DNA of 64,000 nt from positions 912,628 through 976,627 of the forward strand of contig CAVXKA010000002.1 in assembly GCA_963762255.1 (NCBI GenBank), in the 5' to 3' direction. Position numbers and translations under genes: made by a program. The stretch comes from Candidatus Eiseniibacteriota bacterium. GTDB taxonomy: Bacteria > Eisenbacteria > RBG-16-71-46 > JABDJR01. Position 1 is the stretch's first letter. Each line of letters opens with the position of its first letter. The notes beneath the pieces were generated by a model. The model saw only the letters and a list, made by a program, of their open reading frames with translations. It made no database searches and was not told the DNA's origin. This document shows positions 4,230 to 20,436 of this stretch, piece by piece.

Positions 4230-5093
4230 TCAGGTTGCCGCGATTCGGGGGATGAGCGCCTCGATGAATCGGGTGAAGGTCTCCCGGAGACGCGAAGTCA
4301 CTTCCATAACCTCGCCGTGGGAAAGGGGCTCCAGCGAGAGGCCGGCGGCCCGGTTGGAGATGCAGGTGACACCCAACACCTCCATTCCCAGGTGCCTGGC
4401 CACGATGACCTCCGGCACGGTGGACATGCCCACGGCGTCTCCCCCGAGGCGACGCGCCATGGCGACCTCGGCCCGCGTCTCATAGGTGGGTCCGAGGTTC
4501 CCCCAGTAGGTGCCGGCCCGCAGCCCGCAGAGCCCTCGTTCCGCGGCAACCTCGAAGCCTATGGCCAGGAGGCGCTTCGAGAAGGGCTCGGCCAGATCCA
4601 CGAAACGATCCGCATCCACAAGAGGACCCCGGCCGCGCAGGGGGCTTCGAAACTGGAAGTTCACCTGGTCCTCGATGAGCATCAGGTCCCCGGGATTCAG
4701 GCGTGGGTCGACCCCGCCGGCGGCGTTCGTCACCACCAGCGCGCGCGCGCCGAGGGCATGCATGACGCGCAGCGGGAAGGTCACCTGGGCCGCCGAGTAC
4801 CCCTCGTACAGATGGAAGCGCCCCTGTTGGGCGGCGACGGGGACGCCGCCGGTCTGCCCGAGGACGAGCCTGCCCGCGTGCCCCTCCACCGTGGCAACAG
4901 GGAAGCCCGGCAGATCGCGGTAGTCCACAGCGACCGGCGCGGTGAGGGTGTCGGCGAACCCGCCGAGGCCGGAGCCCAGGATGAGCGCAACGCGTGGGAC
5001 GACTGGCGTGCGAGCGCGGATCACCTCCACGCACCGGGCGATGTCCGCCGGCGTGAATCCGATGCTGTCCGCATCGCGGAATCCGGCGCTCAT
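4230..5093 (-). CDS. Purine nucleoside phosphorylase (trimeric PNP/MTAP family)
   Basis: 287 aa. ...ALILGSGLGGFADTL...ATVEGHAGRLVLG...HLYEGY...STVPEVIVARHLGMEVLGVTCISN..., typical PNP-I/MTAP fold motifs. The stop overlaps the udk start by 4 nt. Confidence 0.8.
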   Translation of the reverse strand: MSAGFRDADSIGFTPADIARCVEVIRARTPVVPRVALILGSGLGGFADTLTAPVAVDYRDLPGFPVATVEGHAGRLVLGQTGGVPVAAQQGRFHLYEGYSAAQVTFPLRVMHALGARALVVTNAAGGVDPRLNPGDLMLIEDQVNFQFRSPLRGRGPLVDADRFVDLAEPFSKRLLAIGFEVAAERGLCGLRAGTYWGNLGPTYETRAEVAMARRLGGDAVGMSTVPEVIVARHLGMEVLGVTCISNRAAGLSLEPLSHGEVMEVTSRLRETFTRFIEALIPRIAAT

Positions 5094-5716
5094 CGCGCCT
5101 CCCGGAGCATGCTCCGCACTTTGGTCACAAGGAGATCGACGGCGACTCGGTTTCGCCCACCCTCGGGAATGATGATGTCGGCGTAGCGCTTGGAAGGTTC
5201 GATGAACTGGAGATGCATCGGGCGCACGCTCTCTTCGTACTGTTGGAGGATCGATTCCAGGCTTCTCCCCCGCTCCATCGTGTCCCGGCGGATGCGCCGG
5301 ATGAGCCGCACGTCGGGGTCGGTGTCGATGAACACCTTGATGTCCATGAGCTTTCGGAGCGCGGGATCCTCCAACACGAGGATCCCCTCCAGCATGATGA
5401 CGCGGTGCCCCTCCACGCGCACCGTCTCCGGCAGGCGGGAGTGGTGGGTGAAATCGTACGTGGGCTTCTCGATCGGCTGGCCGCGCAGGAGCGCCTCCAT
5501 GTGATCGAGGAGAAGCTCGCGGTCGAAAGCGTCGGGATGGTCGAAGTTGAGCTTCGCCCGCTCTTCTATGGTGAGGCCGGCGAAGTCCTTGTAGTAGGAA
5601 TCCTGCTCGATCATCACGACCTCTCGCGAACCCAGGTTCTCGATGAGGGTGGATGTGACGAGGGACTTCCCGGAAGCGGAGCCGCCGGCGATGCCGAGAA
5701 GAAGGGGCCCTTCCAT
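5090..5716 (-). CDS. udk: Uridine kinase
   Basis: 208 aa. P-loop GIAGGSASGKSLV and an ...IEQDSYYKD... uridine/cytidine kinase signature. Confidence 0.85.
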   Translation of the reverse strand: MEGPLLLGIAGGSASGKSLVTSTLIENLGSREVVMIEQDSYYKDFAGLTIEERAKLNFDHPDAFDRELLLDHMEALLRGQPIEKPTYDFTHHSRLPETVRVEGHRVIMLEGILVLEDPALRKLMDIKVFIDTDPDVRLIRRIRRDTMERGRSLESILQQYEESVRPMHLQFIEPSKRYADIIIPEGGRNRVAVDLLVTKVRSMLREAR

Positions 5717-5735
5717 GACGTCCTGTCCTGCTTTC

Positions 5736-6872
5736 CTAGAAATGATCCCGCGGCGGGACGAACTCCGGGCCGAAGGACCGGCCGATGAGTCCGTCCAGCT
5801 CGTCCAGGACCTGCGTAAGGAGCGCCACCTTGCGCCGCAGCGGAAGGAAGGCGCTCTTGAATCCGTTGAGCACGAGCTTGCGCACGTCCGCGACCCCCAG
5901 CCCGAACGCCTCGACGGCCTTGCGGTACTCGCGGGTAATGTCGGTGTCGCTCATGAGGGTGTTGTCCGTGTTGAGAGTCACCCGGAGCCCCGAATCGTAA
6001 TACAACCGGAACGGATGGTCCTCAAGGCGCTCCACCACCGCGGTCTGGAGATTGGAAGTGAGGCAGATCTCCAGAGGGATGCGGTGGTTGTTCACGTAGG
6101 CCATGAGGTCGGGATCCTCGTGCAGCCGCGTGCCGTGCCCTATGCGATGCGCCCCCAGCGCGTGCAGAGCCTGGTGGATGCTCGCCGGACCGTAGCCCTC
6201 TCCGGCGTGGCACGTGCAGTTGATGTTGTTCTTGAGGATCTTGTAGAAAGCGCTTCCGTGCTCCTTGGCCGGGTAGTTGAACTCGGCGCCGGCGAGATCG
6301 AACCCCACCACCCCGCTCTTCTTGTACTCGACGCATAGGTCGGCGAGGGCAAGGCTCTTGGCGGGAGACATGCTGCGGATGCTGCAGATGATGACGCCGG
6401 TCAGCACCCCCGTCGCCCGCGTTGCCTCATCGAGGCCGGCCAGCACCGAGTCCAGGATCTCCTGCATGGAGTGTCCCTTGAGTTCGTGAAGGATGGGCGA
6501 GAACCGCACCTCGATGTACCGCACGTTCTCCCGCGCGGCATCCTCCACCAGCTCGCGCGCCACGCGCCGCATGGCGCCCGGCTCCTGCAGCACGGAGAGC
6601 GTGTGCTGGAACGCGTCCAGGTACTCCTCCAACGACTCGCAGGCGTCCCCGCACACGAGGCGGCGGCGCAGCTCCGGCTCCGTCTCGCGGGCCAGGTCGA
6701 GGCTCTGGTCGCGGGCCAGCTCGCGAACGGTGTCGAGACGGACCGAGCCGTCGAGATGGATGTGAAGATCGGTCTTGGGGATCTCCCGAAGGAAGCTCGG
6801 GTGGGAGAGGATCATGGCGGTTTCGCGGCTCCGCTCCCCGGGACCGCTCCGCCCCAGCTCCGGCGCGCTCAT
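5736..6872 (-). CDS. add: Adenosine deaminase
   Basis: 378 aa. PKTDLHIHLDGS and metal-dependent hydrolase motifs (HAGE, SxNTDD-like LNTDNTL) typical of Add. Confidence 0.85.
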   Translation of the reverse strand: MSAPELGRSGPGERSRETAMILSHPSFLREIPKTDLHIHLDGSVRLDTVRELARDQSLDLARETEPELRRRLVCGDACESLEEYLDAFQHTLSVLQEPGAMRRVARELVEDAARENVRYIEVRFSPILHELKGHSMQEILDSVLAGLDEATRATGVLTGVIICSIRSMSPAKSLALADLCVEYKKSGVVGFDLAGAEFNYPAKEHGSAFYKILKNNINCTCHAGEGYGPASIHQALHALGAHRIGHGTRLHEDPDLMAYVNNHRIPLEICLTSNLQTAVVERLEDHPFRLYYDSGLRVTLNTDNTLMSDTDITREYRKAVEAFGLGVADVRKLVLNGFKSAFLPLRRKVALLTQVLDELDGLIGRSFGPEFVPPRDHF

Positions 6873-8171
6873 CTAGCGGATCTCCGCCCGCGAGAGAAGA
6901 TCGCGGATCGCTTGCGCTGGCCGCCGCAGGTATTCCTCGGGGTCGAGGTGTGGAAGGCGCCCGCTCGCGACACGGATCTCGCCGTCCACGACCACCCAGC
7001 GCACGGCGTCGCGCGCCGCGGCGTAGACGATCCGGTCGTAGACCGATACGCCGGGGCCGCCGAAGGTCTGCGGACGGTCGAGGTCGAGCACGACCACATC
7101 GCCGGCCTTTCCCGCCTCGAGGCTTCCGATCGCGTCATCCCATCCCACCGCCCGCGCGCCATCGATCGTGGCCATCTCGAGTGCGGCCATCGCGGAGAGA
7201 CTTCCCGGACCGCCCTTCAGGCCTTGCAACAGCGCGGCGAGGCGCATCTCCTCCAGCACGTCCATGTCGTTATTGCAGGGGGCGCCGTCGCAGCCGATGC
7301 CCACCGAGAGGTTGTCCTGCGCGCGCAGGAACGGCAGGTCGGCCACGCCGGATCCCAGCTTCAAGTTGGCCGTCGGGCAGTGCGCGATCTTGAGCGGTCG
7401 TCCGCCCAGCGTCTCCAACTCGGGCTCGCGAAGCCACACCGCGTGGGCGGCGCGCAAGTCAACGTCGAGCACGCCGGTCGTGCTCAGGAACTCCATCTGC
7501 CCCGTGCCCAGCGACGCCCGCACCGCCGCTTCCTCGGCTTCGCTCTCGAGAAGGTGCGTGTGTACGGGCGCGTCCAGCTCCGCGGCCAGGGCGGCGGTGC
7601 GCTCCCAGAGCGCGCGCGAGCAGGAAAGCACGAAGCGCGGGCAGAGGGCGCCGCGGATCCTTCCGTCGGCCTCTCCGTGCCAGCGGCGATACAGATCGCC
7701 CGCCTCCTCGATCGCCCGGTCCGGATCTTCGAGGAGCGCGCTCGGCGCGCCCTCGCCGGTATCCATCAGACACTTCCCCGCCACCGCGCGCAGGCCGGAG
7801 TCGCGGATCGCGCGAAAGATTCCCTCCATGCCGCGCACCAGGCCGAACTCCTGGATCGTGGTGGTGCCGGAGAGAAGACAGTCGGCCGCTCCAAGAAGCC
7901 CGGATGCGTACGCGGTGTCGTCGGTGTGCGCCGCCTCCAGCGGCCAGATGCGTTCGCGGAGCCAGCTCAGAAGCGGGCGGTCCTCGGCGAGGCCGCGAAA
8001 GAGGGCCTGACCGAGATGCACGTGCGCCTGGATGAACCCGGGCAGGACGAAGAGGCCCTGGGCCTCCAGGAGCCGCGTGGCAGGCGGCGGGACGATGCCG
8101 GGGCCGAGCGCAACGATGCGACCGTCGGTGATGAGGAGATCGCCTTCCAGCACGCGCCGCCCGGGGTCCAT
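6873..8171 (-). CDS. Amidohydrolase (COG0402-like nucleobase/nucleoside deaminase: guanine deaminase, MtaD or 8-oxoguanine deaminase-like)
   Basis: The homologous region starts ...LLIRGGTLVTMDPGRRVLEGDLLITDGRIVALG...LPGFIQAHVHLGQALFRG...HLLESEAE...HCPTANLKLGSG...GCDGAPCNNDMD.... The ATG at 8171 (MDPGRR) is the first Met. The true start is probably a non-ATG codon about 8198 (LLIRGG). The track ORF N-terminus up to 8957 is spurious and overlaps hpt. Confidence 0.7.
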   Translation of the reverse strand: MDPGRRVLEGDLLITDGRIVALGPGIVPPPATRLLEAQGLFVLPGFIQAHVHLGQALFRGLAEDRPLLSWLRERIWPLEAAHTDDTAYASGLLGAADCLLSGTTTIQEFGLVRGMEGIFRAIRDSGLRAVAGKCLMDTGEGAPSALLEDPDRAIEEAGDLYRRWHGEADGRIRGALCPRFVLSCSRALWERTAALAAELDAPVHTHLLESEAEEAAVRASLGTGQMEFLSTTGVLDVDLRAAHAVWLREPELETLGGRPLKIAHCPTANLKLGSGVADLPFLRAQDNLSVGIGCDGAPCNNDMDVLEEMRLAALLQGLKGGPGSLSAMAALEMATIDGARAVGWDDAIGSLEAGKAGDVVVLDLDRPQTFGGPGVSVYDRIVYAAARDAVRWVVVDGEIRVASGRLPHLDPEEYLRRPAQAIRDLLSRAEIR

Positions 8172-8224
8172 CGTGACCAGGGTGCCGCCGCGGATCAGGA
8201 GATGGCGATGGGACCGGGGCAGGG

Positions 8225-8755
8225 TCACGGCTGGCGGTAGACCTCTTCTTTGAGCACGCCGATGTAAGGCAGGTTCCGGTAGAGCTGGTTGTAGTCGAGC
8301 CCGTAGCCCACCACGAATTCGTTGGGACACTCGAAGCCGACGTACTTCACCGGCACTTCCTCGGCGCGAGCCTCGCGCTTGTCGAGCAGCGCGCAGATCT
8401 CCACCGACTTGGGATGGCGGGTGTAGAGGTTGTCGAGGAGATAGCGCGCGGTGAGGCCGGTGTCGATGATGTCCTCGACGATCAGGACGTGCCGTCCGTC
8501 GATGGGCTGGTTCAGATCCTTGAGGATGCGCACGACTCCCGAGGAGTGGGTGCCGCCGCCGTACGAGGAGACCGACATGAAGTCGACCTCGAGGTGGGTG
8601 TTCATCGAACGCACCAGGTCCGCCATGTAGGGAAAGCACCCGTTCAGGATGCCGACCATCAGAACGCGCCGGTCCGCGTAGTCGCGAGCGACCTCCGCAC
8701 CCATGGCCTGAACCTTGGCCCGGACTTGTTCCTCGCTGAAGAGAACCTCTCGCAT
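8225..8755 (-). CDS. hpt: Hypoxanthine-guanine phosphoribosyltransferase
   Basis: 176 aa from the internal Met (MREVLFSEEQVRAKVQ...). PRPP-binding VLIVEDIIDTGLT motif. The upstream 210 aa of the track ORF are Arg-rich junk. Confidence 0.85.
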   Translation of the reverse strand: MREVLFSEEQVRAKVQAMGAEVARDYADRRVLMVGILNGCFPYMADLVRSMNTHLEVDFMSVSSYGGGTHSSGVVRILKDLNQPIDGRHVLIVEDIIDTGLTARYLLDNLYTRHPKSVEICALLDKREARAEEVPVKYVGFECPNEFVVGYGLDYNQLYRNLPYIGVLKEEVYRQP

Positions 8756-8992
8756 GTCCGCACCGATACCGTTTTCCCAAGATTTCATGCTGTGGCGATT
8801 CCCCTCTCTCCCGCTGGTTATGGTGCTCCCGGTGGCTTGTCGAGATGCGCGAGGCCGGAGCCCGGGAGGTAGGACCGATCGGCGAGCATTCTGCCGCGTC
8901 CGCCCCCGGGAGGCAAGGCGCGAAACCGGGACACGCGGCGCCGCTCGGGGGTACCATGCGTGGAAGCTTCGGGCCGAAGGAGGGATGCGTTT

Positions 8993-10398: not shown

Positions 10399-10671
10399 TC
10401 AGATCCCCATGTGGACTTCGTCCACGACGCCAACGATGACGGCCCGCACCGGCGCGTTCGGGTCACCGACCACCTGGCGGGCGGAGTTGCCCTCGTCGAT
10501 CAGGAGCACCAGCTCGCCGGCGCCCGCGTCGACGGAGTCGAGCGCGATCACGTAGCGCCCGTCCGGCGCGAGCTTCTCGTCCAGGCGATCCACCAGCAGC
10601 ATGCGTCGCCCCTGATAGAACGGGTGCTGGATCGTGGAGACGACGGTGCCGGTTACTCTGCCGAGGAACAT
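10399..10671 (-). CDS. BMC vertex protein (BMC-P, EutN/CcmL/PduN family), copy 1
   Basis: 91 aa. MFLGRVTGTVVSTIQHPFYQGRRMLLVD...AGAGELVLLIDEGNSARQVVG...VRAVIVGVVDEVHMGI, a canonical EutN/CcmL fold sequence. Confidence 0.8.
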   Translation of the reverse strand: MFLGRVTGTVVSTIQHPFYQGRRMLLVDRLDEKLAPDGRYVIALDSVDAGAGELVLLIDEGNSARQVVGDPNAPVRAVIVGVVDEVHMGI

Positions 10672-10709: not shown

Positions 10710-10979
10710 CTACTGGTCGCTCACGTCGTCGGCGATGCCGACGATGGCGTGGTCCACGGGCACGAAGGTCTCGGGCAACGCCATCGCGGCCTCGCGCCCG
10801 CCGATGAAATAGACGAGCTCGCCGGGACCGGCCTGCCCGGTGGCGTCGGCGCACACCAGCGGATCGCCCGCGCTCTTCATCTTGCGGTCGAGCGGCTCCA
10901 CCATCAGGAGCTTCACCCCTTCGAGCCCTTCGCTCTTGACCGTCGCCACCAGCGTGCCGCGCACCCGCCCGAGTTGCAT
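10710..10979 (-). CDS. BMC vertex protein (BMC-P), copy 2
   Basis: 89 aa. MQLGRVRGTLVATVKSEGLEGVKLLMVEPLD...GELVYFIGGREAAMA.... Its ATG overlaps the stop of the upstream BMC-T (ATGA). Confidence 0.8.
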   Translation of the reverse strand: MQLGRVRGTLVATVKSEGLEGVKLLMVEPLDRKMKSAGDPLVCADATGQAGPGELVYFIGGREAAMALPETFVPVDHAIVGIADDVSDQ

Positions 10980-11605
10980 CAGCCTTCGCCCTGGTTCCAC
11001 TGGGCCGCGAAACGCGTCCCGCCGAAGATGTTCTCGGCCAGTTCGGTATGGAGCCGCGGAATCACAACTTTCTGCACGAGGTTGCCGCTCTCGATCGCGG
11101 AAACGCCGAATTCCACCGCGGCCTCCACGTCGGCCTGCTCGCCGGCAAAGAGCAGAAGCGCCTTCCCGCCCAGACCGTTGGCGAGACGAAGCTCCACCAG
11201 CGCCACCTGCGCCCCCTTCATACCGGCATCGGCGGCGCGGATCGCGCTCACCGTGGTGCGCGTCTCGATCACGCCGAGCGTGTCGATGGGATCCTTCGAG
11301 CGCTGACCGGCGATGGCGTTGCCCACTGCGGGGTGGATGTCGGGAAGGAACAGGCGATCGATGAGCGCGGGCGCGCCCGCCTCCACTCCGGCAGCGAGCG
11401 ATTCCTCGACGCTGGCCACGTCGCCGTCCACCAGCACCAGGTACTTGCCCGGATGAACGCTCCCCGCCACCAGCGCCCGCACCGGCGCCTTCTTCACCAT
11501 CGCGTCGGCCGCTCGCATGCCGAGCGCGATGCTCGAGAACTCGAGGAGTCCGAGCGCGGGCACAGTCACCCCGGGAGCGAGGTCGGCGGCTTCGATCGAG
11601 TCCAT
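10979..11605 (-). CDS. BMC-T shell protein (tandem BMC-domain pseudohexamer)
   Basis: 208 aa with two BMC domains (ALGLLEFSSIALGMRAADAMVKKAPV... and TLGVIETRTTVSAIRAADAGMKGAQVALVE...). Confidence 0.75.
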   Translation of the reverse strand: MDSIEAADLAPGVTVPALGLLEFSSIALGMRAADAMVKKAPVRALVAGSVHPGKYLVLVDGDVASVEESLAAGVEAGAPALIDRLFLPDIHPAVGNAIAGQRSKDPIDTLGVIETRTTVSAIRAADAGMKGAQVALVELRLANGLGGKALLLFAGEQADVEAAVEFGVSAIESGNLVQKVVIPRLHTELAENIFGGTRFAAQWNQGEG

Positions 11606-11615
11606 CGTCCCTTTC

Positions 11616-13052
11616 CTACACGATCCGGAAGCGGTCCACGAGGACGCACCGCCGCCAGCGGGTGAAACTGCGAGCGCGGGTCATTCCCTCGCCGGTGGGG
11701 CTCGCGATCGAGAACGAGGTGAACCCCTCGCCGCCCGCGCCCAGCCCGGCCAGCGACGAGCCGTTCTTGACGAAGATCGAGCAGTCCATGACCCGGGCCA
11801 TGCGGCTCAGGGCATCCACGTTCCGCGAGTGCATGACCGCGGTGTGGCGGAAGCCGTGCTCGGCGGCCTTGGCCAGATCGATAGCCGCGTTCACGTCGCG
11901 CACGCGCACCAGCGGCATGACCGGCATCATCTGCTCGGTCCAGACCAGCGGATGATCCTCGGGGACTTCCACCAGGATCATGCGCACGTCGTCGCCCACC
12001 GTGATCCCCATCTCCTTGAGAATGACGGCGGGGATCTTTCCGATGAAGTTCTTGTTGATCACGCCGTGCTGGCGCGGCCCGCGCATCTCGGTGAAGATCG
12101 TCTTCTCGAGCTTCCCGAGCTGCCAGGCGGTGAGTTCCACCGCGCCGGCGGCGATCATCGCCTTCTTCAGGCGATCCGCCACCGCGTCCACGCAGATCAC
12201 TTCCTTCTCCGTGGTGCAGACGATCTGGTTGTCGAAGGATCCGCCTTTGACGATGTCGCGACCGGCGCGCTCGAAGTCGGCGGTCTCGTCCACCACCACC
12301 GGCGGATTACCAGGGCCCGCGCAGATGGCGCGCTTGCCGCTGCCCATCGCCTCTTTCACCACGCCGGGACCGCCGGTGACGACCAGCAGGTTGACCAGCT
12401 TGTGGCGCATGAGTTCCTGCGCGCTCTCGATCGTGGGATTGGCCACACACGTGACGAGGTTGGGCGGCCCGCCCGCGGCGGTGATCGCCTGATTGATGAG
12501 CTGCACCGTCTTGGCCGAGCAGTTCTTGGCGTTGGGATGGGCGTTGAAGACGGCCGCGTTCCCCGCCGAGAGCATCCCGATCGCGTTGTTGATGATGGTG
12601 GCGGTGGGGTTGGTGGTCGGTGTGATCGCGCCCACCACGCCGAAGGGCGCAAGCTCCAGAAGCGTGAGCCCGTGGTCGCCGGTGGTGACCAGTGGTTCGA
12701 GATCCTCGGGCCCCGGGCTCTTGTTGATGACGAGAAGGTTCTTCTCGACCTTGTCCTCGTAGCGGCCGAGCCCGGTCTCCTCGCGCGCCATCCAGGAGAG
12801 CAGCTCCGCGTTGTGACGCAGCACGACCCGCATCTGGGCGATGATGTCGTAGCGCAGGGCGAGGCTCGACTCACAAAGCAAGCGCTGCGCTTCCTTGGCC
12901 GCGGTGACCGCGCTCTCCACGCCGGCGAAGATGCCGTCGCTCCCGGGCGCCGGGGGCGGCGGGAGCGGCTTCCCCTCGGGGGTGTGGCCCGACTTCATCG
13001 AGCCCAACACATCCTGCACCGTGCGGCTGATCTCCTCGCGGGAGATGCTCAT
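11616..13052 (-). CDS. CoA-acylating aldehyde dehydrogenase (PduP/EutE-like metabolosome signature enzyme) with an N-terminal encapsulation-peptide-like helix
   Basis: 478 aa. ALDH fold with a catalytic Cys region (...NQIVCTTEKEVI...) and PduP/EutE-like layout. The N-terminus ISREEISRTVQDVLGSM (amphipathic) is followed by a Pro-rich linker GKPLPPPPAPGSDG. Confidence 0.8.
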   Translation of the reverse strand: MSISREEISRTVQDVLGSMKSGHTPEGKPLPPPPAPGSDGIFAGVESAVTAAKEAQRLLCESSLALRYDIIAQMRVVLRHNAELLSWMAREETGLGRYEDKVEKNLLVINKSPGPEDLEPLVTTGDHGLTLLELAPFGVVGAITPTTNPTATIINNAIGMLSAGNAAVFNAHPNAKNCSAKTVQLINQAITAAGGPPNLVTCVANPTIESAQELMRHKLVNLLVVTGGPGVVKEAMGSGKRAICAGPGNPPVVVDETADFERAGRDIVKGGSFDNQIVCTTEKEVICVDAVADRLKKAMIAAGAVELTAWQLGKLEKTIFTEMRGPRQHGVINKNFIGKIPAVILKEMGITVGDDVRMILVEVPEDHPLVWTEQMMPVMPLVRVRDVNAAIDLAKAAEHGFRHTAVMHSRNVDALSRMARVMDCSIFVKNGSSLAGLGAGGEGFTSFSIASPTGEGMTRARSFTRWRRCVLVDRFRIV

Positions 13053-13067
13053 CCGCCTCTCCTTCCC

Positions 13068-13364
13068 TTACTCATTCGACTTGTCGTAGACACGGCGATC
13101 GTCCAGCTCCCAGGTGTCCACGATCGCCATCACGACGGCGTCGCAGGGACGGTCCTTGGTGGACTGGGTCTGGCGCGCACTGGAGCCGGTGGCGAAGAGG
13201 ACGACTTCGCCGACCCCCGCCCCCACTGCATCGCTCGCCACCACGAAGCTGCCGGTCTCCTTGGCTTCCGCGGTGAGCTGGCGCAGGAGCAGGAACTTGA
13301 GTCCCTCCATGCTCTCTTCCTTGCGCGAGGCCACCACGGTGCCGACCACCCGGGCCAGTAGCAT
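13068..13364 (-). CDS. BMC vertex protein (BMC-P), copy 3
   Basis: 98 aa. [30 protein letters not shown]...[14 protein letters not shown].... Confidence 0.8.
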
Positions 13365-13421
13365 GAGCTTTCCTCCGCGGACGGGGCCGGGACGCGTGCC
13401 CCGACCCCGTTCGGAAGTGCG

Positions 13422-13733
13422 TTACTTGCCGCCCATCTCGGCGCGGGCTTCCTTGCTCCGGCCGAGAGGCAGCGCGATGTCCACGTTGACGTGCGGCCGC
13501 GGAATGGTGTGCGTGCTCACCACCTCGCCCACCTTCTCCGCCCCACGCTTGCCGGCATCCACCGCCGCTTTCACCGCGGCCACGTCGCCGCGGACGATGA
13601 CCGTCACATAGCCCCCGCCGATCTTCTCGTAGGCGACCAACTCCACCTTCGCCGCCTTCACCATGGCGTCGGCGGCTTCCACCGTCGCGGCGAATCCGCG
13701 GGTTTCGATCATGCCCAGCGCTTCTGCCATCAC
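13422..13733 (-). CDS. BMC-H hexamer shell protein (PduA/EutM-like)
   Basis: 103 aa. [81 protein letters not shown], a near-canonical Pfam00936 sequence. Confidence 0.9.
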
Positions 13734-13824
13734 GTCCTCCGTTGCTTCGGGTTATGCGGCCGGGGAGGCGCCTTCGTCGGGCTTCACGGCCCGCGCGTGC
13801 CCCGTCCGGTCTTCTGAAATCGTT

Positions 13825-14454
13825 CTAGGACTCCCGCCCGGTCAACTCCGCGATCGCGGCCTCGGCGGCGCGGTACCCGACGTCGATGTCGCGCTCCTCA
13901 CCGCCGAGATAGATGCGGCCGAACGAACCGAACGCGCGCACATCGAGAATGTTGATGTGCGCCGCCTTCTCCGCCTCGTTGGCGGCGAGCGCCGCGTAGG
14001 CCGCGGGCTCCAGCTCCATGACGTATAGGCTATGCCCCGGCACCAGCATGTTGCCGTGGCGCATCCGGTTGATGAGCTGGGCCTGGAGCGGATCCACGAG
14101 GCGGATCACCTGGCTCGAGAGGACGCGCGGCTTGCGCCGGTCGCTCTCGGTGAGACCGCACGCATCGAGGATCGCCTGCCCCGCCTGGCGCACTTCGCCC
14201 TGCGATTCGGAGTGAACCTCGAGAAGGCCGTACAGGCGCTCGACGATCTGCATGCCGGGAAAAACGTTGGTGCTCTTCACCGCGATGTCGGTGATGCGGT
14301 TGATCTCGATGCCGGGTGAGATCTCCACGTACAGGCACGCTTGGCCGGGCAGCGGCAGGAACCCTCCCGCCACCGTGCCCAGGAACGCCGCGTGCTGCGG
14401 CTGCAAGCTGTCGAGAAACACGTAGGAGCGCAGGTCGATCTGCGTTTTCGCCAT
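13825..14454 (-). CDS. BMC-T shell protein, permuted tandem type (PduB/EutL-like)
   Basis: 209 aa from [31 protein letters not shown].... Two permuted BMC repeats. The ATG overlaps the deoC stop (ATGA). The track ORF N-terminus up to 15306 is Arg-rich junk. Confidence 0.7.
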
Positions 14455-15488
14455 CAGTAAGGACCTTTCGTTTGCGGGGAGTCGACGGCCTCGCCGCGCG
14501 ACTCCTTCACGATGCGCACCCCCGCCGAGGCGCCGATGCGGGTCGCCCCCGCCTCGATCATCCCCAGCGCATCGGCATAGCTCCGAATGCCGCCCGCGGC
14601 CTTCACCCCCATTTCGGGGCCCACCGTGGCGCGCATGATGGCCACGTCGCGGATGGTCGCCCCCCCTGAGGCGAATCCGGTGGAGGTCTTCACGAAATCC
14701 GCGCGCGCGCGCTTGGCGAGAAGGCAGGCCACGACCTTTTCCTCGTCGGTGAGGAGGGCGGCTTCGATGATCACCTTCACGATCACGTTCGATTCGTGGC
14801 AGGCGGCGGTGACCTCGGCGATGTCTTCCTCCACCAGATCGTAGTTCCCGCTCTTGAGCGCGCCCACGTTGATGACCATGTCCACCTCGCGCGCGCCCTC
14901 GCGGATCGCCTTGCGCGACTCGAAAGCCTTGGTGGCGGGAGTGGTGGCGCCGAGCGGGAAGCCGACCACGGTGCAGACCTTGGCGTCGCTCCCTCGCAAG
15001 AGCTGCGCGCAGAGTCGCACGAAGCTTGGGTTGACGCACACCGAGGCGAAGTGGTTGCGCGCCGCTTCCTCGCAGAGCTTCTGAATCTCCGCTTCGGTGG
15101 CGTCGGGCTTGAGCATGGTGTGGTCGATGTAGCTGGCGATGTCGTGGGCCACCGCGCCGCTTCCGCCGCCGGAGCCGATACGCGACGCGCCGGCGGCCAC
15201 AAAGCTTCGCACCGTCTCCGGGCTGCGCTGCGCGGGGTTCGTGCTGCGCGCGCGGTCTTCGGAGTCTGCGGAGCTGGCGTGACGGATGGCGGGTCGCTCG
15301 TAGCACGGCTCGTAGGAGCGGCGGTAGGCCTCGGTGACCGCGGGGCCCTTGGGTGCCGACCCGGCGGGCGAGGACGGCTTGCTTGCTGCAGGCGCTTCCG
15401 CCGTTGGCGGCGCCGCGGCGGCCGGCCCCTGCAGCCGGGCCAGCACCTCGCGGGTGATCCGCTCGATGAGGGCATCGCGCTCGTTCAT
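14454..15488 (-). CDS. deoC: Deoxyribose-phosphate aldolase with an N-terminal encapsulation peptide and long Ala/Pro/Ser linker
   Basis: 344 aa from [22 protein letters not shown] (amphipathic helix), then an ~80-aa low-complexity linker ([28 protein letters not shown]...). The DeoC TIM-barrel follows: ...[15 protein letters not shown]...VCVNPSFV...[10 protein letters not shown]...FVKTSTGF...[21 protein letters not shown]. The ATG overlaps the rpiB stop. Confidence 0.85.
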
Positions 15489-16045
15489 CGCGCTCCCGCT
15501 CCCGCCCCGTCCAGGGCGTCGATCTTGGCCACCCGCTTCAAGTGGCGCTCTTCCGTGCAGGCGGTCGCAAGAAAGGTCTTCACGATCGCGCGGGCGAGCA
15601 CGACGCCGATCAATCCCGCTCCCAGCGTGACCACGTTGGCGTTGTTGTGCTCGCGCGCGTTGGCGGCGGTGGAGAGGTCGTAGCAGAGCGCGGCCCGCGC
15701 GCCCGGAATCTTGTTGGCGGCCATGCAGGATCCGATGCCGGCGCCGTCGATCATGATCCCGAACTCGGCGCGCCCATCGACGACCGCGCGCGCGACCGCC
15801 GCCGCGAAGTCGGGATAGTCCACCGCGTCGGTGGAGTGCGTGCCGAGGTCGACCGGTTCCCACCCGATCGTCGGGAGGAATCGCTTGAGATCTTCCTTGA
15901 GCGGAAAGCCGCCGTGGTCGGCGCCGATCGCCACTCGGCGCGCCGCGACCGCACCGGGATTCGCGAGCGATGCGTCGACGACGCGCTCCACCACCGTGCG
16001 CACGAGATTCTCAAGCTCTCGATCGTGCAAGCCGCCGTCCTCCAT
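15485..16045 (-). CDS. rpiB: Ribose-5-phosphate isomerase B with an N-terminal encapsulation-peptide-like extension
   Basis: 186 aa. About 35-aa extension ([20 protein letters not shown]) before the RpiB/LacAB core [16 protein letters not shown]...[23 protein letters not shown].... Confidence 0.8.
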
Positions 16046-16124: not shown

Positions 16125-16697
16125 ATGGCCGACAAGACGCGCTGCGCATGGGCGGGCACCGATCCCCTCTACGTGGCTTACCACGATCACGAGTGGGGCG
16201 TGCCCGAGCACGACGATCGCGCGCTCTTCGAGAAGCTCCTGCTGGACGGGTTCCAGGCCGGCCTGGCCTGGATCACGATCCTGCGCAAGCGCGAGAACTT
16301 TCGGCGGGCCTTCGACGGGTTCGACCCGGAGAAGATCGCCCGCTACCGCGCGGCGAAGATCGAATCGCTGCTCGCGGATCCCGGTATCGTGCGCAACCGG
16401 CAGAAGGTAGCGGCCTCGGTGGGCAATGCGCGGGCCTACATCGAGCTGAGGAAGGAAGCCGGGAGTTTCGACCGGTATCTGTGGAGCTTCGTGGGGGGGA
16501 AGCCGATAATGAACGCGTACCGGACGATGGCGGAATTGCCGGCGCGGTCGGCGGAATCCGAAGCGATGAGCCGCGATCTCGTGCGTCGGGGGTTTCGATT
16601 CGTGGGCCCCACCATCTGCTACGCGTTCATGCAGGCGGTGGGGATGACGCACGATCACCTCGTCGACTGCTTCCGGTACGGAAAGCTCAAGCCATGA
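16125..16697 (+). CDS. tag: DNA-3-methyladenine glycosylase I
   Basis: 190 aa. ...DPLYVAYHDHEWGVPEHDDRALFEKLLLDGFQAGLAW...VGPTICYAFMQAVGM..., Zn-finger Tag signature residues. Confidence 0.85.
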   Translation: MADKTRCAWAGTDPLYVAYHDHEWGVPEHDDRALFEKLLLDGFQAGLAWITILRKRENFRRAFDGFDPEKIARYRAAKIESLLADPGIVRNRQKVAASVGNARAYIELRKEAGSFDRYLWSFVGGKPIMNAYRTMAELPARSAESEAMSRDLVRRGFRFVGPTICYAFMQAVGMTHDHLVDCFRYGKLKP

Positions 16698-17098
16698 CCT
16701 CGTTGCGCCGCAACAAGAACTGGATCCTCGTCGCCGTCGCGGTGGCGGTGCCCGTGCTCGTGATCGTGGGGCTGCGGGTGGCCGCCCGCGTCGAGGAGTG
16801 GCCCGTCTCCCTCGGCGCCAACACCGTAGAGCAGGTCAAGGGACAACCGCTGACGCTCTACTCCTGCGACAACATCCCCAAGCTCTCGGGCACGCCGTGT
16901 CATGAACAGGGCAGCGCCGACTTCATGATGGTGGTGCTCCACGACAAGCCTGCGGGCGCGGCGTCGGTGCGCGTCCCCGACCCCGGCGCCGGCATCCCCG
17001 CGCGCACGCTCGAGCTTCGTTTCATCGGCGGAACGGTCTGGGTCAAGGTCGAGGCGAGCGATCTGCAAGGATGGATCGAGCGCGGCTACACGCGCTGA
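16694..17098 (+). CDS. Hypothetical membrane-anchored protein
   Basis: 134 aa. MTSLRRNKNWILVAVAVAVPVLVIVGLRV... has a single N-terminal TM helix. It overlaps the tag stop by 4 nt. Confidence 0.45.
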   Translation: MTSLRRNKNWILVAVAVAVPVLVIVGLRVAARVEEWPVSLGANTVEQVKGQPLTLYSCDNIPKLSGTPCHEQGSADFMMVVLHDKPAGAASVRVPDPGAGIPARTLELRFIGGTVWVKVEASDLQGWIERGYTR

Positions 17099-17154
17099 AT
17101 CGCGCGGCAACAACCGCCGCGTGACATCCGCCCGCTTCGGTTCCGTCGCCCCCG

Positions 17155-17823
17155 CTACTCGGCCTTCACGAACCTCACCATCCCGGTCTTCAGGTCTTCG
17201 CTGGCGGGGCTCGGGCCGAACCAGATGGCGAAGAGGGCCCGCGCGAACGCAGGATCGGCGATGGGCGCGCAGGGGCGACCCGGCATCATCACGTAGAGCC
17301 CCATGCCCGGCATCCAGGTGATCTCGATCGTCTGACCGTCCTTGACGCCGGCGTCGGTGAAGAAGCCGAGGAAGGCCGCCTTCGCTTTCTCCAGGTCCGG
17401 CGTCATCGCATCCGCGGGAAGAGTCTTTGCGAACCCCTCCTCATAGGTCTCGCGGATCTTTCCGCCGTCCACGTCCCGCAGGAAGTGCATCTCGACCCGC
17501 TTCGCGAAGTTTCCGTTGATCAACGCGGCAAAGGGATCGGCACCGAGCGGCGCGTTCTCGTCCGCATAGAGCACACCCTCGTACACCTTGAACATGAGCT
17601 TCTTGCGCAGGCCGGAACCGAGCGCCTTCAAGGTGACCGTCTCCCCCGCCGCCTTGATCGCGATCTTCTCGGGGAACTTCTTATCCGTGCCCTTTCCCTT
17701 GAAGGTCTCCGTGCCCGCGGGGGACACGTTGAGGATCTGCGGGATCGCGCCTTGGGCGCGCACGAGGACCGCAGCGAAGATCGTGAGGACCAGGGCGAGG
17801 AGAGCCATGCGGGCGAGCTTCAT
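17155..17823 (-). CDS. Secreted chalcone-isomerase-like (Chalcone_3 family) protein
   Basis: 222 aa. Signal peptide MKLARMALLALVLTIFAAVLVRAQG. Chalcone-isomerase-like fold features (FKVYEGVLYADE..., LFAIWFG). Confidence 0.5.
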   Translation of the reverse strand: MKLARMALLALVLTIFAAVLVRAQGAIPQILNVSPAGTETFKGKGTDKKFPEKIAIKAAGETVTLKALGSGLRKKLMFKVYEGVLYADENAPLGADPFAALINGNFAKRVEMHFLRDVDGGKIRETYEEGFAKTLPADAMTPDLEKAKAAFLGFFTDAGVKDGQTIEITWMPGMGLYVMMPGRPCAPIADPAFARALFAIWFGPSPASEDLKTGMVRFVKAE

Positions 17824-17839
17824 CGTTCACCTCCGGAGG

Positions 17840-19975
17840 TCAGGGCCGGATATCGAGCCTGATACGGGCGTCGACCGCCACGCATCCCTTGCCAACTGAT
17901 AGCACCTTTACAGGGTTCAGGTCCATCTCCGCGATCTCGGGATGATTCCCCACCAGAACGGACACACGCAGGATCGCTTCCTCCAGGGCCGGGACATCGG
18001 CCGGAGGCGCGCCGCGATAGCCGTTGAGGAGTGCATACCCCCGAACCCCCCGAACCATTTCGTCGGCGTCGCGGTCGGTGAGCGGGTGGATGCGGAAGGT
18101 CACGTCCTTCATCACTTCGACCTGCACCCCGCCGAGGCCGAACGCCACGAGCGGGCCGAACTTGGGATCCTGGGTCACGCCGACCAGAACCTCGACCCCT
18201 TCCTTCACCAGGGGCTGCACGGTGAAGCCGTGCGCCGCGCCCTCCAGGCCGCGGGTGCGCAGCGCGGCGCAGATCTCGTTCACCGCGCTCTCGACCTCCG
18301 CTTCCGTGCGCAGGTCGAGCCGCACACCGCCCACGTCGCTCTTGTGCGAGATGGAATCGGAGTGGAGCTTCACGACCACGGGGAAACCGAGGGAGCGCGC
18401 GGCGGCCGCCGCCTCCTTGGGGGTCGCGGCGAAGAGCACGGGCGGGGTGCGGATGCCGTACGCGGCCAGGACGCGGTCGACTTCGTCGGCGTTGAGCCAG
18501 CCGCCTTCATCGCCCATGCGCTCGCGCGCGGCCGCAAACACCGCGGCGGCGTCCGCCGCGCGCACGTCGTCAAAGGCGATCTCGCGACCGGGGGCCTTCG
18601 CCATCCACTGGCCGTGGCGCACCGCGCGCCCGAGCACGCGCACCGCGCTCTCGGGAAACGCATACGAGGGGATGTTTCCCTCCTTGAGCGAGCGCAGTCC
18701 TTCCGGCACGCCGTGCTTGCCGAGGAAGCAGGTGAGCACCGGCTTCTCGGTGCCTTCGGAGCCGTTCACGATCCCCCGCGCCACCTCGCGGGGCTCCGTC
18801 ACGATCGGCGGCACGAAGAGCGCGATCAAGGCGTCGATCTTCGGGTCCGCGAGCAGCGCCCGCGTGGCACGCTCGTAGTTCTGCGCGGTGGCCGAAGCGA
18901 TCATGTCCACCGGGTTGCGCACGCTCGCTTCCGGGGGAAGGAACTCGTGCAGGCGCGCCGTGGTGCTCTCGCTCAGGTCGGACACCTCCAGCCCGTGCGC
19001 CTCGCAGGCATCGGTCGCGAGGATCCCGGGACCGCCGGCGTTGGTCAGGATGGCCACGCGGCTCCCCTTCGGGATCGGCTGATACGCGAGGAACGCGGCC
19101 ATGTCGAAGAGTTCTTCCACGGTGTCGACGCGGATGATGCCGGTCTGCGCGAAGAGCGCGTCCACCGCCACGTCGGCGCCTGCCAGGGCGCCGGTGTGGC
19201 TCGTGGCCGCGGTCATGCCTCGGCGCGTGCGCCCGCTCTTTACGGCGACGATCGGCTTGCGCCGCGTGATCTCACGAGCGAGCCGCGTGAACTTGCGGGG
19301 GTTACCGAACGATTCCAGGTACAAGAGCATGACCTTGGTGCGCGGGTCGGCGTCCCACCACTGCACGAGGTCGTTGCTGGAAACGTCGGCCTTGTTCCCG
19401 ATGGAGACGAAGTCGCTGACCCCGATGTTGAAGCTGCGCGTGTAGTCGAGGATGGCCACCCCGAGCGCGCCGCTCTGGCTGGCGATGGCCACGTTGCCTT
19501 CCGGCGGATAGGTCGGGGCAAAGGTCGCGTCGAGGCGCACGTCGGGTGCGGTGCTGAGCACACCGAGGCAATTCGGCCCCACCAGGCGCATGCCGTGCGC
19601 GCGAACGATCTCCTTCAAGCGCGCTTCGCGGGCCGCGCCTTCTTCGTTGACTTCCTTGAACCCGGCCGAGATCACGACCACCCCGCGCACACCCTTCGCG
19701 GCGCAGGCTTCGACCATGGCGACGACGACCTTGGCCGGCACCACGACCACCGCGAGGTCGACCGGGCCCGGGATATCGGCGATGCTCGCGTAAGCCTTCA
19801 CCGACTGCACGAAGTCGGACTTGAGGTTGACCGGGTACACCGGCCCCTGGAAACCGTTCAAGAGCAGGTTGCGGAAGATCTCGCCGCCGATCGACCCGCG
19901 CTCGGTGGAAGCGCCGATCACCGCCACCGATCGCGGGCGCAAGAGACCCGAGAGATCCACGGCGCTCCCGCTCAC
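17840..19975 (-). CDS. Acetyl-CoA synthetase (ADP-forming) / NDP-forming acyl-CoA synthetase, fused alpha-beta
   Basis: About 711 aa from the GTG at 19975 (overlapping the usp stop). CoA-binding domain (SVAVIGASTERGSIGGEIFRNLL), succinyl-CoA-synthetase-like His region and C-terminal ATP-grasp. The upstream 197 aa of the track ORF are junk. Confidence 0.75.
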   Translation of the reverse strand: MSGSAVDLSGLLRPRSVAVIGASTERGSIGGEIFRNLLLNGFQGPVYPVNLKSDFVQSVKAYASIADIPGPVDLAVVVVPAKVVVAMVEACAAKGVRGVVVISAGFKEVNEEGAAREARLKEIVRAHGMRLVGPNCLGVLSTAPDVRLDATFAPTYPPEGNVAIASQSGALGVAILDYTRSFNIGVSDFVSIGNKADVSSNDLVQWWDADPRTKVMLLYLESFGNPRKFTRLAREITRRKPIVAVKSGRTRRGMTAATSHTGALAGADVAVDALFAQTGIIRVDTVEELFDMAAFLAYQPIPKGSRVAILTNAGGPGILATDACEAHGLEVSDLSESTTARLHEFLPPEASVRNPVDMIASATAQNYERATRALLADPKIDALIALFVPPIVTEPREVARGIVNGSEGTEKPVLTCFLGKHGVPEGLRSLKEGNIPSYAFPESAVRVLGRAVRHGQWMAKAPGREIAFDDVRAADAAAVFAAARERMGDEGGWLNADEVDRVLAAYGIRTPPVLFAATPKEAAAAARSLGFPVVVKLHSDSISHKSDVGGVRLDLRTEAEVESAVNEICAALRTRGLEGAAHGFTVQPLVKEGVEVLVGVTQDPKFGPLVAFGLGGVQVEVMKDVTFRIHPLTDRDADEMVRGVRGYALLNGYRGAPPADVPALEEAILRVSVLVGNHPEIAEMDLNPVKVLSVGKGCVAVDARIRLDIRP

Positions 19976-20436
19976 GGGTTCTCCATCTCGCCGTCTGGTC
20001 GATGCACGACGAGAACCGGACAGGGCGAGGTCCGCACGACCTTCTCGGTCACGCTTCCCAGCAGCATATGTTTGAGGCCGGTACGGCCATGAGTGCCCAT
20101 GACGATCAAGTCGGTCTTCTCCTCTTCCGCAAGGCGAACGATCCCCGCGAAGGGCGCGCCGTGCAGGACGCGCGTGTCGAGCCGCACGCCCTCGGGCAAC
20201 GCCTTCGGCACGAACGCCTCCATCTCCCGAGCCGCCTCTGCGGACAGTCGCTGGGTCAGCTCGGGGGGCGGCACCGCGATCCCCACGTAGCCGTAGGTAA
20301 GCGGGATGTCGTCCACCACGTGGCAGACCAGGAGCGTGCCGCCGGGCGAAACGAGGTCGAGAGCGTAGTCGAGGGTGGCCCGCGAGGTCTCGGAGAAATC
20401 GATAGGAGCGAGCACTTTCGTGAACTGCTTGGCCAT
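19972..20436 (-). CDS. Universal stress protein (UspA family)
   Basis: 154 aa. ...ILAPIDFSETS...LLVCHVVD...DLIVMGTHGRTGLKHMLLGSVTEKVVRTSPCPVLVV. Confidence 0.8.
   Translation of the reverse strand: MAKQFTKVLAPIDFSETSRATLDYALDLVSPGGTLLVCHVVDDIPLTYGYVGIAVPPPELTQRLSAEAAREMEAFVPKALPEGVRLDTRVLHGAPFAGIVRLAEEEKTDLIVMGTHGRTGLKHMLLGSVTEKVVRTSPCPVLVVHRPDGEMENP

Follow-up and report, generated by a model that had tools for sequence, protein, structure and literature searches.

The window, by which we mean the whole 64,000-nucleotide stretch of DNA that was analysed, contains a minus-strand operon (16045→10399) that is identified by Pfam matches and synteny as the locus of a sugar-phosphate-utilising (SPU) bacterial microcompartment (BMC). 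Its genes are arranged in the order RpiB-like protein, DeoC/DERA, BMC-Tdp, BMC-H, BMC-P, acylating aldehyde dehydrogenase (AldDH), BMC-Ts, BMC-P, and BMC-P (Table 1), and the syntenic loci L081, L083, and L084 show the order RpiB, DERA, Tdp, H, P, AldDH, Ts, P, P. No GntR regulator, PTAC, PduS, or alcohol dehydrogenase was found among the genes of this operon.

Table 1. Genes and protein segments of the SPU locus, with their positions in the window
Feature	Position	Strand	Evidence
RpiB-like protein, 186 aa from ATG 16045	15485..16045	-	Pfam LacAB_rpiB, residues 38-175; PDB RpiB alignments
RpiB N-terminal helix, encapsulation-peptide candidate, residues 8-28	15962..16024	-	AF2; hydrophobic moment; PduP-tag score 39
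Short RpiB linker, residues 29-36, NPGAVAAR	15938..15961	-	Variable in homologue alignment; lower pLDDT
DeoC/DERA, 344 aa, signature aldolase of the compartment	14454..15488	-	PDB DERA matches to E = 2e-84, residues 115-333
DERA N-terminal helix, encapsulation-peptide candidate, residues 3-20	15429..15482	-	AF2 helix; conservation; profile; EutC-tag score 29
DERA low-complexity spacer, residues 21-67 (~46 residues)	15288..15428	-	Composition; AF2; comparison with SPU DERAs
Conserved SPU-DERA N-terminal module, residues 68-114 (~47 residues)	15147..15287	-	Alignment conservation; not linker
BMC-Tdp shell protein, CsoS1D-like, 209 aa	13825..14454	-	Weak Pfam BMC match; PF27545 CsoS1D_N in syntenic orthologues
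BMC-H shell protein	13422..13733	-	Pfam BMC, E = 1.7e-31
BMC-P pentamer protein, first of three	13068..13364	-	Pfam EutN_CcmL
CoA-acylating AldDH, 478 aa, catalytic Cys279	11616..13052	-	Pfam Aldedh; Cys motif SFDNQIVCTTEKE found
AldDH N-terminal helix candidate, residues 3-19, ISREEISRTVQDVLGSM	12996..13046	-	PduD-tag score; conservation
AldDH Pro/Gly-rich linker, residues 20-39, KSGHTPEGKPLPPPPAPGSDG	12936..12995	-	Most solved homologues start at ~residue 40
BMC-Ts tandem-domain shell protein	10979..11605	-	Two Pfam BMC domains
BMC-P, second of three, start set at MQLGRV	10710..10979	-	Pfam EutN_CcmL from ORF residue 8; orthologues 89 aa
BMC-P, third of three, start set at MFLGRV	10399..10671	-	Pfam EutN_CcmL from ORF residue 62; orthologues 90-91 aa

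The RpiB-like protein, DERA, and AldDH all carry N-terminal extensions that are missing from solved and non-BMC homologues, each of them opening with a helix of 17-21 residues. The peptides quoted for the three enzymes in the original prediction were all located on the minus strand where it had placed them, and its view that they are extensions rather than parts of the catalytic domains is confirmed by the alignments: Pfam and PDB homologues start only at RpiB residue ~37, DERA residue ~115, and AldDH residue ~40, and the helices are absent from cytosolic and solved homologues. The helices are conserved across orthologous loci, while the linkers are variable. AlphaFold (AF2) models of the RpiB-like protein and DERA returned N-terminal helices, as had been anticipated. 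In the RpiB-like protein the helix spans residues 8-28 (block-mean pLDDT 72 for residues 1-10, 88 for 11-20, and 66 for 21-30) and reads ELExLVRxVVERVV in the orthologues. The AldDH begins with MSISREEISRTVQDVLGSM, followed by the linker, which varies in length and sequence from locus to locus; its best PDB match, the aldehyde dehydrogenase 5jfl (E = 1e-128), aligns to query residues 23-476, and the other solved homologues start at residue 40 or later. Its helix has the pattern SREEIxRTVxxVL in L081, L083, and L084 and an IQAIIERV-type pattern in remoter SPU loci. Ser and Thr occur in this helix where PduP is hydrophobic.

The helices were scored by ungapped BLOSUM62 comparison with the validated Salmonella tags PduP1-18, PduD1-20, and EutC1-19 (tag sequences from PMC5405515), using as background 8350 20-mers from the coding ORFs of the window (mean 13.5, sd 3.6, maximum 35). 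The results showed that the RpiB helix best resembles PduP (score 39) and the AldDH helix PduD (score 36), both exceeding all background 20-mers (0/8350), and that the DERA helix best resembles EutC (score 29, empirical P = 0.0026). The hydrophobic moments of the three helices are moderate (0.54-0.66); that of the RpiB helix tops every other 15-mer in the protein, and that of the DERA helix gave P = 0.18 in a within-segment shuffle. The amphipathic BMC-targeting pattern that had been proposed is thus borne out by helices that are amphipathic, conserved in syntenic loci, and above background in tag score. These sequence-level data support the assignment of all three helices to encapsulation peptides as defined in PMC4594438. 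A profile of the DERA helix found no match to the RpiB or AldDH helices; the three appear alike in pattern, and homology among them is not demonstrable from their sequences.

The extension of DERA, whose residues D203, K238, and K267 are invariant in a 26-sequence alignment, is composed of three parts. In the helix, predicted by AF2 over residues 3-20 with a pLDDT of 85-90, L19 is invariant and L7, E9, T12, and V15 are nearly so in the same 26 sequences, and the N-terminus of the window's DERA is matched with E = 2.5e-13 by a profile that was made from 91 independent DERA N-termini. The spacer is rich in Ala, Pro, and Ser (61% of residues 22-67), has an AF2 pLDDT below 50 over residues 24-48, and includes a clade-conserved AYxRSYxP motif at 15303-15335. 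It is missing or far shorter in most SPU DERAs and expanded in the window's clade, with 120 residues ahead of the IDHT motif compared with a median of 83 and a maximum of 138 in SPU DERAs. The third part is common to SPU DERAs in general and is the counterpart of a structural element reported in PMC11585597; it has invariant G100, A101, and R103 (26 sequences). Of 110 non-fused homologues, 93 have a GA[STAD]R[IFL] motif ahead of the barrel, and in proteins that fuse RPI with DERA the module persists between the two domains. It matches no Pfam model and is modelled by AF2 with low confidence. At 11 Firmicutes DERA loci, just 8-28 codons of open frame precede the IDHT motif. The ~80-residue Ala/Pro/Ser linker originally described for DeoC is therefore correct in its low-complexity tract (residues 22-67), but of the 93 residues between helix and barrel, residues 68-114 belong to the conserved module. 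Nor is the linker unusually long, since even the whole of it falls inside the published range (AldDH 4-91, EutC 36-91, and CcmN 23-277 residues; PMC4594438). The textbook picture of a helix followed by a poorly conserved linker is broken by this module.

Could the extensions be artefacts of an upstream start choice, with the proteins beginning near their catalytic domains? Gene callers often put the starts of SPU enzymes downstream, leaving truncated homologues such as P0021, P0023, and P0024, and the RpiB-like protein probably begins at TTG 16030 (181 aa), with GGAGGA 7 nt upstream, rather than at ATG 16045. However, the RpiB helix is retained from either start, the start codon of DERA shares bases with the stop codon of RpiB (ATGA), which points to translational coupling, and a ribosome-binding site (GGAAGGAGAGG) lies ahead of the AldDH start. 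Moreover, the extension-coding DNA has a coding-like third-position GC (0.77-1.00, compared with 0.88-0.91 in the catalytic domains), the extensions are kept at the protein level across orthologues of 50-87% identity, and manual start correction led to the same conclusion in PMC11585597. A wrong choice of starts is thus highly improbable, and the extensions hold. A different reading is that the helices serve in enzyme-enzyme assembly, holding DERA, the RpiB-like protein, and AldDH together in a channelling complex without binding the shell, encapsulation being achieved via other surfaces, e.g., the conserved DERA module, which could be a shell contact. Encapsulation peptides self-assemble into bundles and condensates, and PduP-type peptides form trimeric bundles and condensates without a shell (PMC12339742); the operon has exactly three helix-bearing proteins. 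On the other hand, Pdu and Eut peptides suffice to bring foreign cargo to shells (PMC4594438), and DERA continues to bind RPI after loss of the N-terminal extension (PMC11585597), so the helix is unnecessary for the DERA-RPI complex. We consider this exclusive assembly role rather unlikely. Assembly and shell targeting are mutually compatible roles for the helices.

The original prediction had also placed pentose-phosphate isomerisation inside the compartment, with the RpiB-like protein as an active ribose-5-phosphate (R5P) isomerase. The RpiB fold is present, D43/H44, H133/N134, and R167/H168/R171 are invariant, and some RpiBs use a non-Cys base, e.g., Glu in M. tuberculosis (cited in PMC11585597), while the strict conservation of Asp100 suggests that this residue is functional. 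However, alignment with PDB RpiB structures revealed Asp-Gly-Ala-Gly at the site of the catalytic Cys-Gly-Thr/Ser-Gly, with Asp100 at the position of the Cys and Ala102 at that of the Thr/Ser, and this DGAGIG sequence occurs without exception in the aligned homologues (28/28) and in the locus homologues (46/46). The same substitution, Cys66 to Asp, occurs in all SPU RPIs, and the assayed SPU RPI had negligible R5P isomerase activity (PMC11585597). In addition, the locus has no transketolase or other enzyme joining R5P/Ru5P to DERA chemistry. With the catalytic residues replaced and R5P isomerase activity negligible in the assayed homologue, isomerisation within the shell is therefore unsupported, and an active isomerase is quite improbable. 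[quoted passage not shown]

Taken together, it is likely that the operon encodes an SPU-type BMC with an N-terminal encapsulation peptide on each of its three non-shell proteins. In such a compartment, DERA, the RpiB-like protein, and AldDH would each be tagged with a short amphipathic helix that is joined to the enzyme by a flexible tether, a picture consistent with the AF2 pattern of confident helices followed by low-confidence tethers in DERA and RpiB. By analogy with Pdu and Eut, the helices would associate with one another and attach to the shell's inner face, and the three proteins would be co-condensed and enclosed through them. In the DERA extension, the helix is followed by the Ala/Pro/Ser-rich spacer, which is disordered and has lengthened in this clade, and then by the conserved ~47-residue module. 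The RpiB-like protein, which keeps its phosphate-binding and His/Asn residues and has lost the catalytic Cys and Thr/Ser, would most likely serve in packaging by binding DERA or act as an enzyme with another specificity. Judging from its family membership and conserved catalytic residues, the dehydrogenase would trap acetaldehyde as acetyl-CoA.

The targeting-helix finding is not new: Dwyer, Sutter and Kerfeld (2024; PMC11585597) have already described extensions on SPU cargo, reporting that SPU DERA, SPU RPI, and, in all subtypes but SPU6, SPU AldDH have N-terminal extensions or encapsulation peptides, as well as a DERA that turns soluble once its extension is deleted. Their experimental reference is SPU6 of Chloroflexi bacterium GWB2_54_36. 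The window shares with the SPU systems of that study the amphipathic N-terminal DERA helix with an extra conserved element, the N-terminal encapsulation peptide of RPI with Asp for Cys66, a predicted encapsulation peptide on AldDH, adjacent DERA and RPI genes, and a shell of BMC-H, BMC-T, and three BMC-P proteins. By contrast, the DERA extension is longer in the window (~114 versus ~70 residues) because of the additional ~46-residue spacer, and the RPI linker is shorter (~8 versus ~75 residues). As in the subtypes other than SPU6, the AldDH peptide lies at the N-terminus; SPU6-type AldDHs in the compared loci lack it and are only 31-35% identical. Compared with cytosolic proteins, the catalytic domains match short-form DERA (e.g., PDB 5dbu and 6d33, E from 2e-84) and RpiB (e.g., PDB 3he8, 1o1x, and 2vvr, E from 2e-42) over their full length; the first aligned residue is 100-128 in DERA and 24-38 in RpiB, leaving nothing aligned to the extensions, and the aligned RpiB structures, unlike the RpiB-like protein, keep the catalytic Cys.

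The helices also agree in position, length, and hydrophobic/charged pattern with Salmonella enterica PduP(1-18), PduD(1-20), and EutC(1-19), which belong to other enzymes and another microcompartment type, and for which the targeting predicted here is proven. Both the RpiB helix and the PduP segment ELETLIRTIL contain the Glu...Arg (i, i+4) pair as well as the central hydrophobic residue to which PMC12339742 draws attention; in the DERA and AldDH helices, the position of the critical Ile10 of PduP is taken by Thr or Ser. Finally, the RpiB-like protein resembles the gamma-carbonic-anhydrase domain of CcmM and the inactive AldDH copies in GRM loci (cited in PMC11585597) in combining an enzyme fold and a targeting element with the loss of canonical catalytic residues and binding to the signature enzyme. 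It differs from these degenerate packaging proteins in that every other ligand-binding residue is invariant and Asp100 is strictly conserved, because of which it may have a changed catalytic or sensing function.

The nine genes of the operon are those of a sugar-phosphate-utilising (SPU) bacterial microcompartment (BMC), a type delineated in 2014 (PMC4207490), whose membership rose to more than 280 loci in 2021 (PMC8217296). Beside the shell genes (BMC-H, BMC-T and three BMC-P genes), we found a DeoC-type aldolase (DERA; PF01791) with an N-terminal extension, an acylating aldehyde dehydrogenase (AldDH), and an RpiB-type isomerase-fold protein (RPI; PF02502) carrying Asp instead of Cys66. The catalytic residues D203, K238 and K267 of DERA are invariant. 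In three orthologous loci from metagenome assemblies (L081, L083 and L084), the gene order is the same as in the window, and the DERA proteins are 66–70% identical. As for the subtype, the presence of BMC-Tdp argues against SPU1, 4 and 7, that of the RPI against SPU5, and the N-terminal position of the AldDH peptide against SPU6; by elimination among SPU1–7, the locus appears to resemble SPU2 or SPU3, with its genes unfused. The operon and those flanking genes that were scanned contain no PduS homologue; the operon is also without PTAC and alcohol dehydrogenase, and Rfam detected no regulatory RNA in the whole window.

Features of the microcompartment operon (window coordinates)
Feature	Position	Strand	Remarks
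Operon, nine genes	16045 to 10399	minus	
RpiB-like protein	15485–16045	minus	
DERA (DeoC)	14454–15488	minus	Start overlaps the stop of RpiB (ATGA)
Conserved N-terminal module of SPU DERAs	15147–15287	minus	Residues 68–114; 26-sequence alignment
BMC-Tdp	13825–14454	minus	209 aa; identity from PF27545 CsoS1D_N on orthologues
BMC-H	13422–13733	minus	
BMC-P, first	13068–13364	minus	
CoA-acylating AldDH	11616–13052	minus	Preceded by GGAAGGAGAGG; Cys279 present
BMC-Ts	10979–11605	minus	
BMC-P, second	10710–10979	minus	
BMC-P, third	10399–10671	minus	

According to the original prediction, all three cargo enzymes (the RpiB-like protein, DERA and AldDH) carry amphipathic N-terminal helices of the encapsulation-peptide kind, located on extensions that are missing from cytosolic DeoC and RpiB homologues. 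The alignment starts bear out the latter point: homologues in Pfam and among solved structures match from about residue 37 in RpiB, 115 in DERA and 40 in AldDH onwards, and the extensions therefore comprise about 36, 114 and 39 residues, respectively. Wrongly placed start codons would be another explanation for such segments, but the extensions hold up against it. Their peptide sequences are kept in orthologues; the third-position GC of the extension-coding DNA (0.77–1.00, compared with 0.88–0.91 in the catalytic domains) is coding-like; and the start codons of the extended proteins are backed by translational coupling or a Shine-Dalgarno sequence. For RpiB, the true start is probably not the ATG at 16045 but the TTG at 16030 (minus strand, 16028–16045), which is the better placed of the two, with GGAGGA 7 nt upstream. 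In orthologous RpiBs the protein begins at the corresponding site with MHD, MQD or MRE; in L081 the start codon there is likewise a TTG, with GGGAGGA upstream. The TTG still precedes the RpiB helix, which thus survives the shift. As negative controls, 11 Firmicutes DERA loci among the matches listed in the genome scan have just 8–28 open codons upstream of the IDHT motif and are therefore unable to encode such an extension. These controls alone were used, as the contingency between the DERA module and shell genes over 80 genome loci was too noisy, owing to many short contigs, a strict motif regular expression and an insensitive BLAST with the shell proteins of the clade.

Encapsulation peptides are defined (Kinney 2012, Aussignargues 2015) as terminal amphipathic helices of 15–20 residues that are followed by a variable linker and are absent from non-BMC homologues (PMC4594438). 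In the window, all three peptides are N-terminal, on enzymes interleaved with six shell genes, and the PDB alignments of DERA, RpiB and AldDH begin after the extensions. About 8 (RpiB), 20 (AldDH) and 46 (DERA) linker residues vary between orthologues, although DERA departs from a simple helix-plus-linker scheme by an extra conserved 47-residue module. AlphaFold2 (AF2) modelled a helix at DERA residues 3–20 (pLDDT 85–90), followed by values below 50 at residues 24–48 and by the barrel from residue 117 (26-sequence alignment). A second helix was modelled at RpiB residues 8–28, with block-mean pLDDT of 72, 88 and 66 over residues 1–30 and the domain starting at residue 36 (28-sequence alignment). 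The AldDH helix is a candidate, judged from its sequence and tag similarity. The hydrophobic residues recur at i, i+3/4 and i+7, along a single face, and the hydrophobic moments are 0.54–0.66; shuffling tests of these moments over the first 35 residues discriminated only weakly (P = 0.018, 0.18 and 0.024), and tag similarity together with conservation is more informative.

Compared with the Salmonella tags PduP1–18, PduD1–20 and EutC1–19 (sequences from PMC5405515), the ungapped BLOSUM62 scores were 39 for RpiB, 36 for AldDH and 29 for DERA, against a background mean of 13.5 and maximum of 35 for 8350 20-mers from coding ORFs of the window. The RpiB helix core is nearly identical to the Salmonella PduP core ELETLIRTIL and shares with it the i, i+4 pair of Glu and Arg and the hydrophobic residue at the centre, both of which are important for peptide self-assembly (PMC12339742). 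When a profile HMM of DERA N-terminal helices was run against all 539 window ORFs, the sole match was DERA itself (E = 2.5e-13), and no further helix-bearing cargo was found; the RpiB helix, with a score of −1.0, was not a significant match, and this search gave no evidence of homology among the three helices. Overall, the N-terminal helices are real and well above chance, and sequences and structural models give good support to reading the three segments as encapsulation peptides.

The prediction had further described an unusually long Ala/Pro/Ser linker of about 80 residues in DERA. This holds for residues 21–67, a low-complexity spacer with 61% Ala, Pro and Ser, but not for residues 68–114, which form a conserved module. 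In the 26-sequence alignment, the region behind the helix varies in length, being absent in Chloroflexi-type SPU DERAs (~297 aa) and reaching up to ~65 residues in the window's clade (members of 311–362 aa). The module, on the other hand, recurs in each of the 26 SPU DERAs of the alignment; G100, A101 and R103 are invariant in it, and natural RPI-DERA fusion proteins retain it between the two domains. It corresponds to the extra structural element described by Dwyer et al. (PMC11585597). A Pfam search with the isolated extension returned nothing meaningful, leaving the module without a model, and AF2 confidence over it was low. The DERA tether as a whole is long for the family and typical for its clade: 120 residues precede the IDHT motif in the window, compared with a median of 83 and a maximum of 138 among 110 non-fused homologues. 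This length falls inside the published linker ranges (PMC4594438).

Several other features of these tethers were observed. An AYxRSYxP motif at DERA residues 52–62 (15303–15335) is common to the closest relatives within the low-complexity spacer and may be a short linear interaction motif; AF2 placed a weak helix around it, at residues 50–58. The module contains several Cys residues in Chloroflexi and Planctomycetes (e.g. DPNCPDCE...C), in whose place the window's clade has acidic or polar residues. Within this clade, one homologue (P0018, 498 aa, on a 1.7-kb JGI contig) is an RpiB-DERA fusion in which the N-terminal helix of RpiB and the module of DERA are kept and DERA's own helix is lacking. 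In the SPU3-type fusions P0033, P0034, P0046 and P0116, the arrangement is the opposite. P0018 may be a genuine fusion or reflect a frameshift where the two genes join (ATGA).

A question raised by the predicted targeting of RpiB is whether pentose-phosphate isomerisation happens inside the compartment, as had been proposed. In PDB alignments, the window motif is matched with GILVCGSGIG and GVLACGSGIG from RpiBs of trypanosomatids, with Asp100 in place of the catalytic Cys and Ala102 in place of Ser/Thr (residues 99–102, IDGA, 15740–15751). Neither form of the catalytic base of RpiB (EC 5.3.1.6), Cys66 or the M. tuberculosis-type Glu, was found; the position that we take to be that of the M. 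tuberculosis Glu is a Ser. The proton-transfer residue of the C-G-T/S-G motif, Thr68/Ser, is likewise lost, its place being taken by the invariant Ala102. All 28 aligned homologues have the resulting D-G-A-G, as do all 46 RpiB genes that adjoin DERA in the loci examined. Moreover, the Cys66-to-Asp change has been reported for all SPU RPIs, and a purified SPU6 RPI showed negligible R5P isomerase activity (Dwyer, Sutter and Kerfeld, PMC11585597). The window operon encodes no enzyme that links R5P or Ru5P to DERA chemistry. Because of the altered site, the negligible activity of the SPU6 RPI and the missing connecting enzyme, encapsulated pentose-phosphate isomerisation is not supported.

What the protein does instead can be approached from the residues that it has retained. 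D43, H44, H133, N134, R167, H168 and R171 are invariant in the SPU-linked RpiBs examined and match, by motif rather than by direct E. coli alignment, the phosphate-binding and ring-opening residues of the E. coli enzyme (Asp9/His10, His99/Asn100, Arg133/His134/Arg137). Together with the invariant D-G-A-G, this pattern suggests a retained ligand site and not a decaying pseudoenzyme. As the altered site is strictly conserved, the protein may have a different activity or a ligand-sensing role. A packaging role has also been suggested for the SPU RPI, which forms a stable complex with DERA for which the DERA extension is dispensable (PMC11585597). A bolder reading, which we consider rather unlikely, is that the RpiB-like protein is an enzyme or sugar-phosphate sensor with an Asp-based site acting on a non-R5P substrate in the compartment, while the DERA of this clade, with its enlarged tether of helix, long AYxRSYxP-bearing spacer and conserved module, is the hub that nucleates the cargo core. 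Many SPU RpiBs of other clades (L002, L005, L009, L013, L017, L018, L019, L023, L032, L036, L039 and L072) bear a conserved insert of ~40 residues (ITExDVxxLxxGxxLRIxxGAxLTPLAxD...) between helix and domain, which is missing from the window RpiB and hit PF15953 PDU_like below threshold (E = 0.1).

Beyond the domain architecture, helices, conservation and altered RpiB site observed here, the three helices would, by analogy with the Pdu and Eut systems, co-assemble the cargo and recruit the shell. An exit of acetyl-CoA through the gated Tdp pore has been proposed by Dwyer et al. (PMC11585597), and with no PTAC in the operon acetyl-CoA might take this route in the window system as well. It could then be used by the neighbouring ADP-forming acetyl-CoA synthetase (17840–19990), which also adjoins the locus in L083 and L084 and may instead process acetyl-CoA and form ATP outside the shell. 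This synthetase, a Chalcone_3-family protein and the DNA-3-methyladenine glycosylase Tag are neighbours of the operon (window 16125–19990; L083 1–3561; L084 1–4591). A divergent short-chain dehydrogenase lies upstream of RpiB in all three orthologous loci (L081 4567–5331, L083 4508–5272, L084 4602–5339) and is missing in the window, where just 79 bp separate RpiB (16045) from Tag (16125). A nucleoside catabolism/salvage cluster (4230–8800), starting some 1.6 kb past the final gene of the operon, has genes for purine nucleoside phosphorylase, uridine kinase, adenosine deaminase, an amidohydrolase and a phosphoribosyltransferase. Such a cluster is consistent with a deoxynucleoside-derived substrate and with deoxyribose-phosphate feeding into the compartment.

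For annotation, these results support retaining long N-terminal starts, which gene callers tend to trim, and show that an RpiB annotation alone is a poor ground for inferring encapsulated pentose-phosphate isomerisation; both the linker description and the RpiB inference of the original prediction need correction. For experiments, they indicate that the so-called linker of DERA holds a conserved, uncharacterised module without a Pfam model. The encapsulation-peptide finding itself is already published for the SPU family: every SPU DERA has an N-terminal extension with an amphipathic helix, the SPU RPI bears at its N-terminus an encapsulation peptide of the usual kind and a linker, AldDH carries its predicted peptide at the N-terminus except in SPU6, where it is at the C-terminus, and the extensions are often trimmed by gene callers (PMC11585597). 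The window operon is one more locus of this kind; it adds an uncultured high-GC lineage (~67% in the window), in which the published rule of encapsulation peptides on DERA, RPI and AldDH holds, and leaves the current understanding of microcompartments unchanged. Compared with the studied SPU6 system, its differences are quantitative. The window operon is without PTAC, PduS and alcohol dehydrogenase, and the linker lengths, a further guide to experiments, are reversed: the DERA tether is longer in the window, whereas the RPI linker has ~8 residues instead of ~75.
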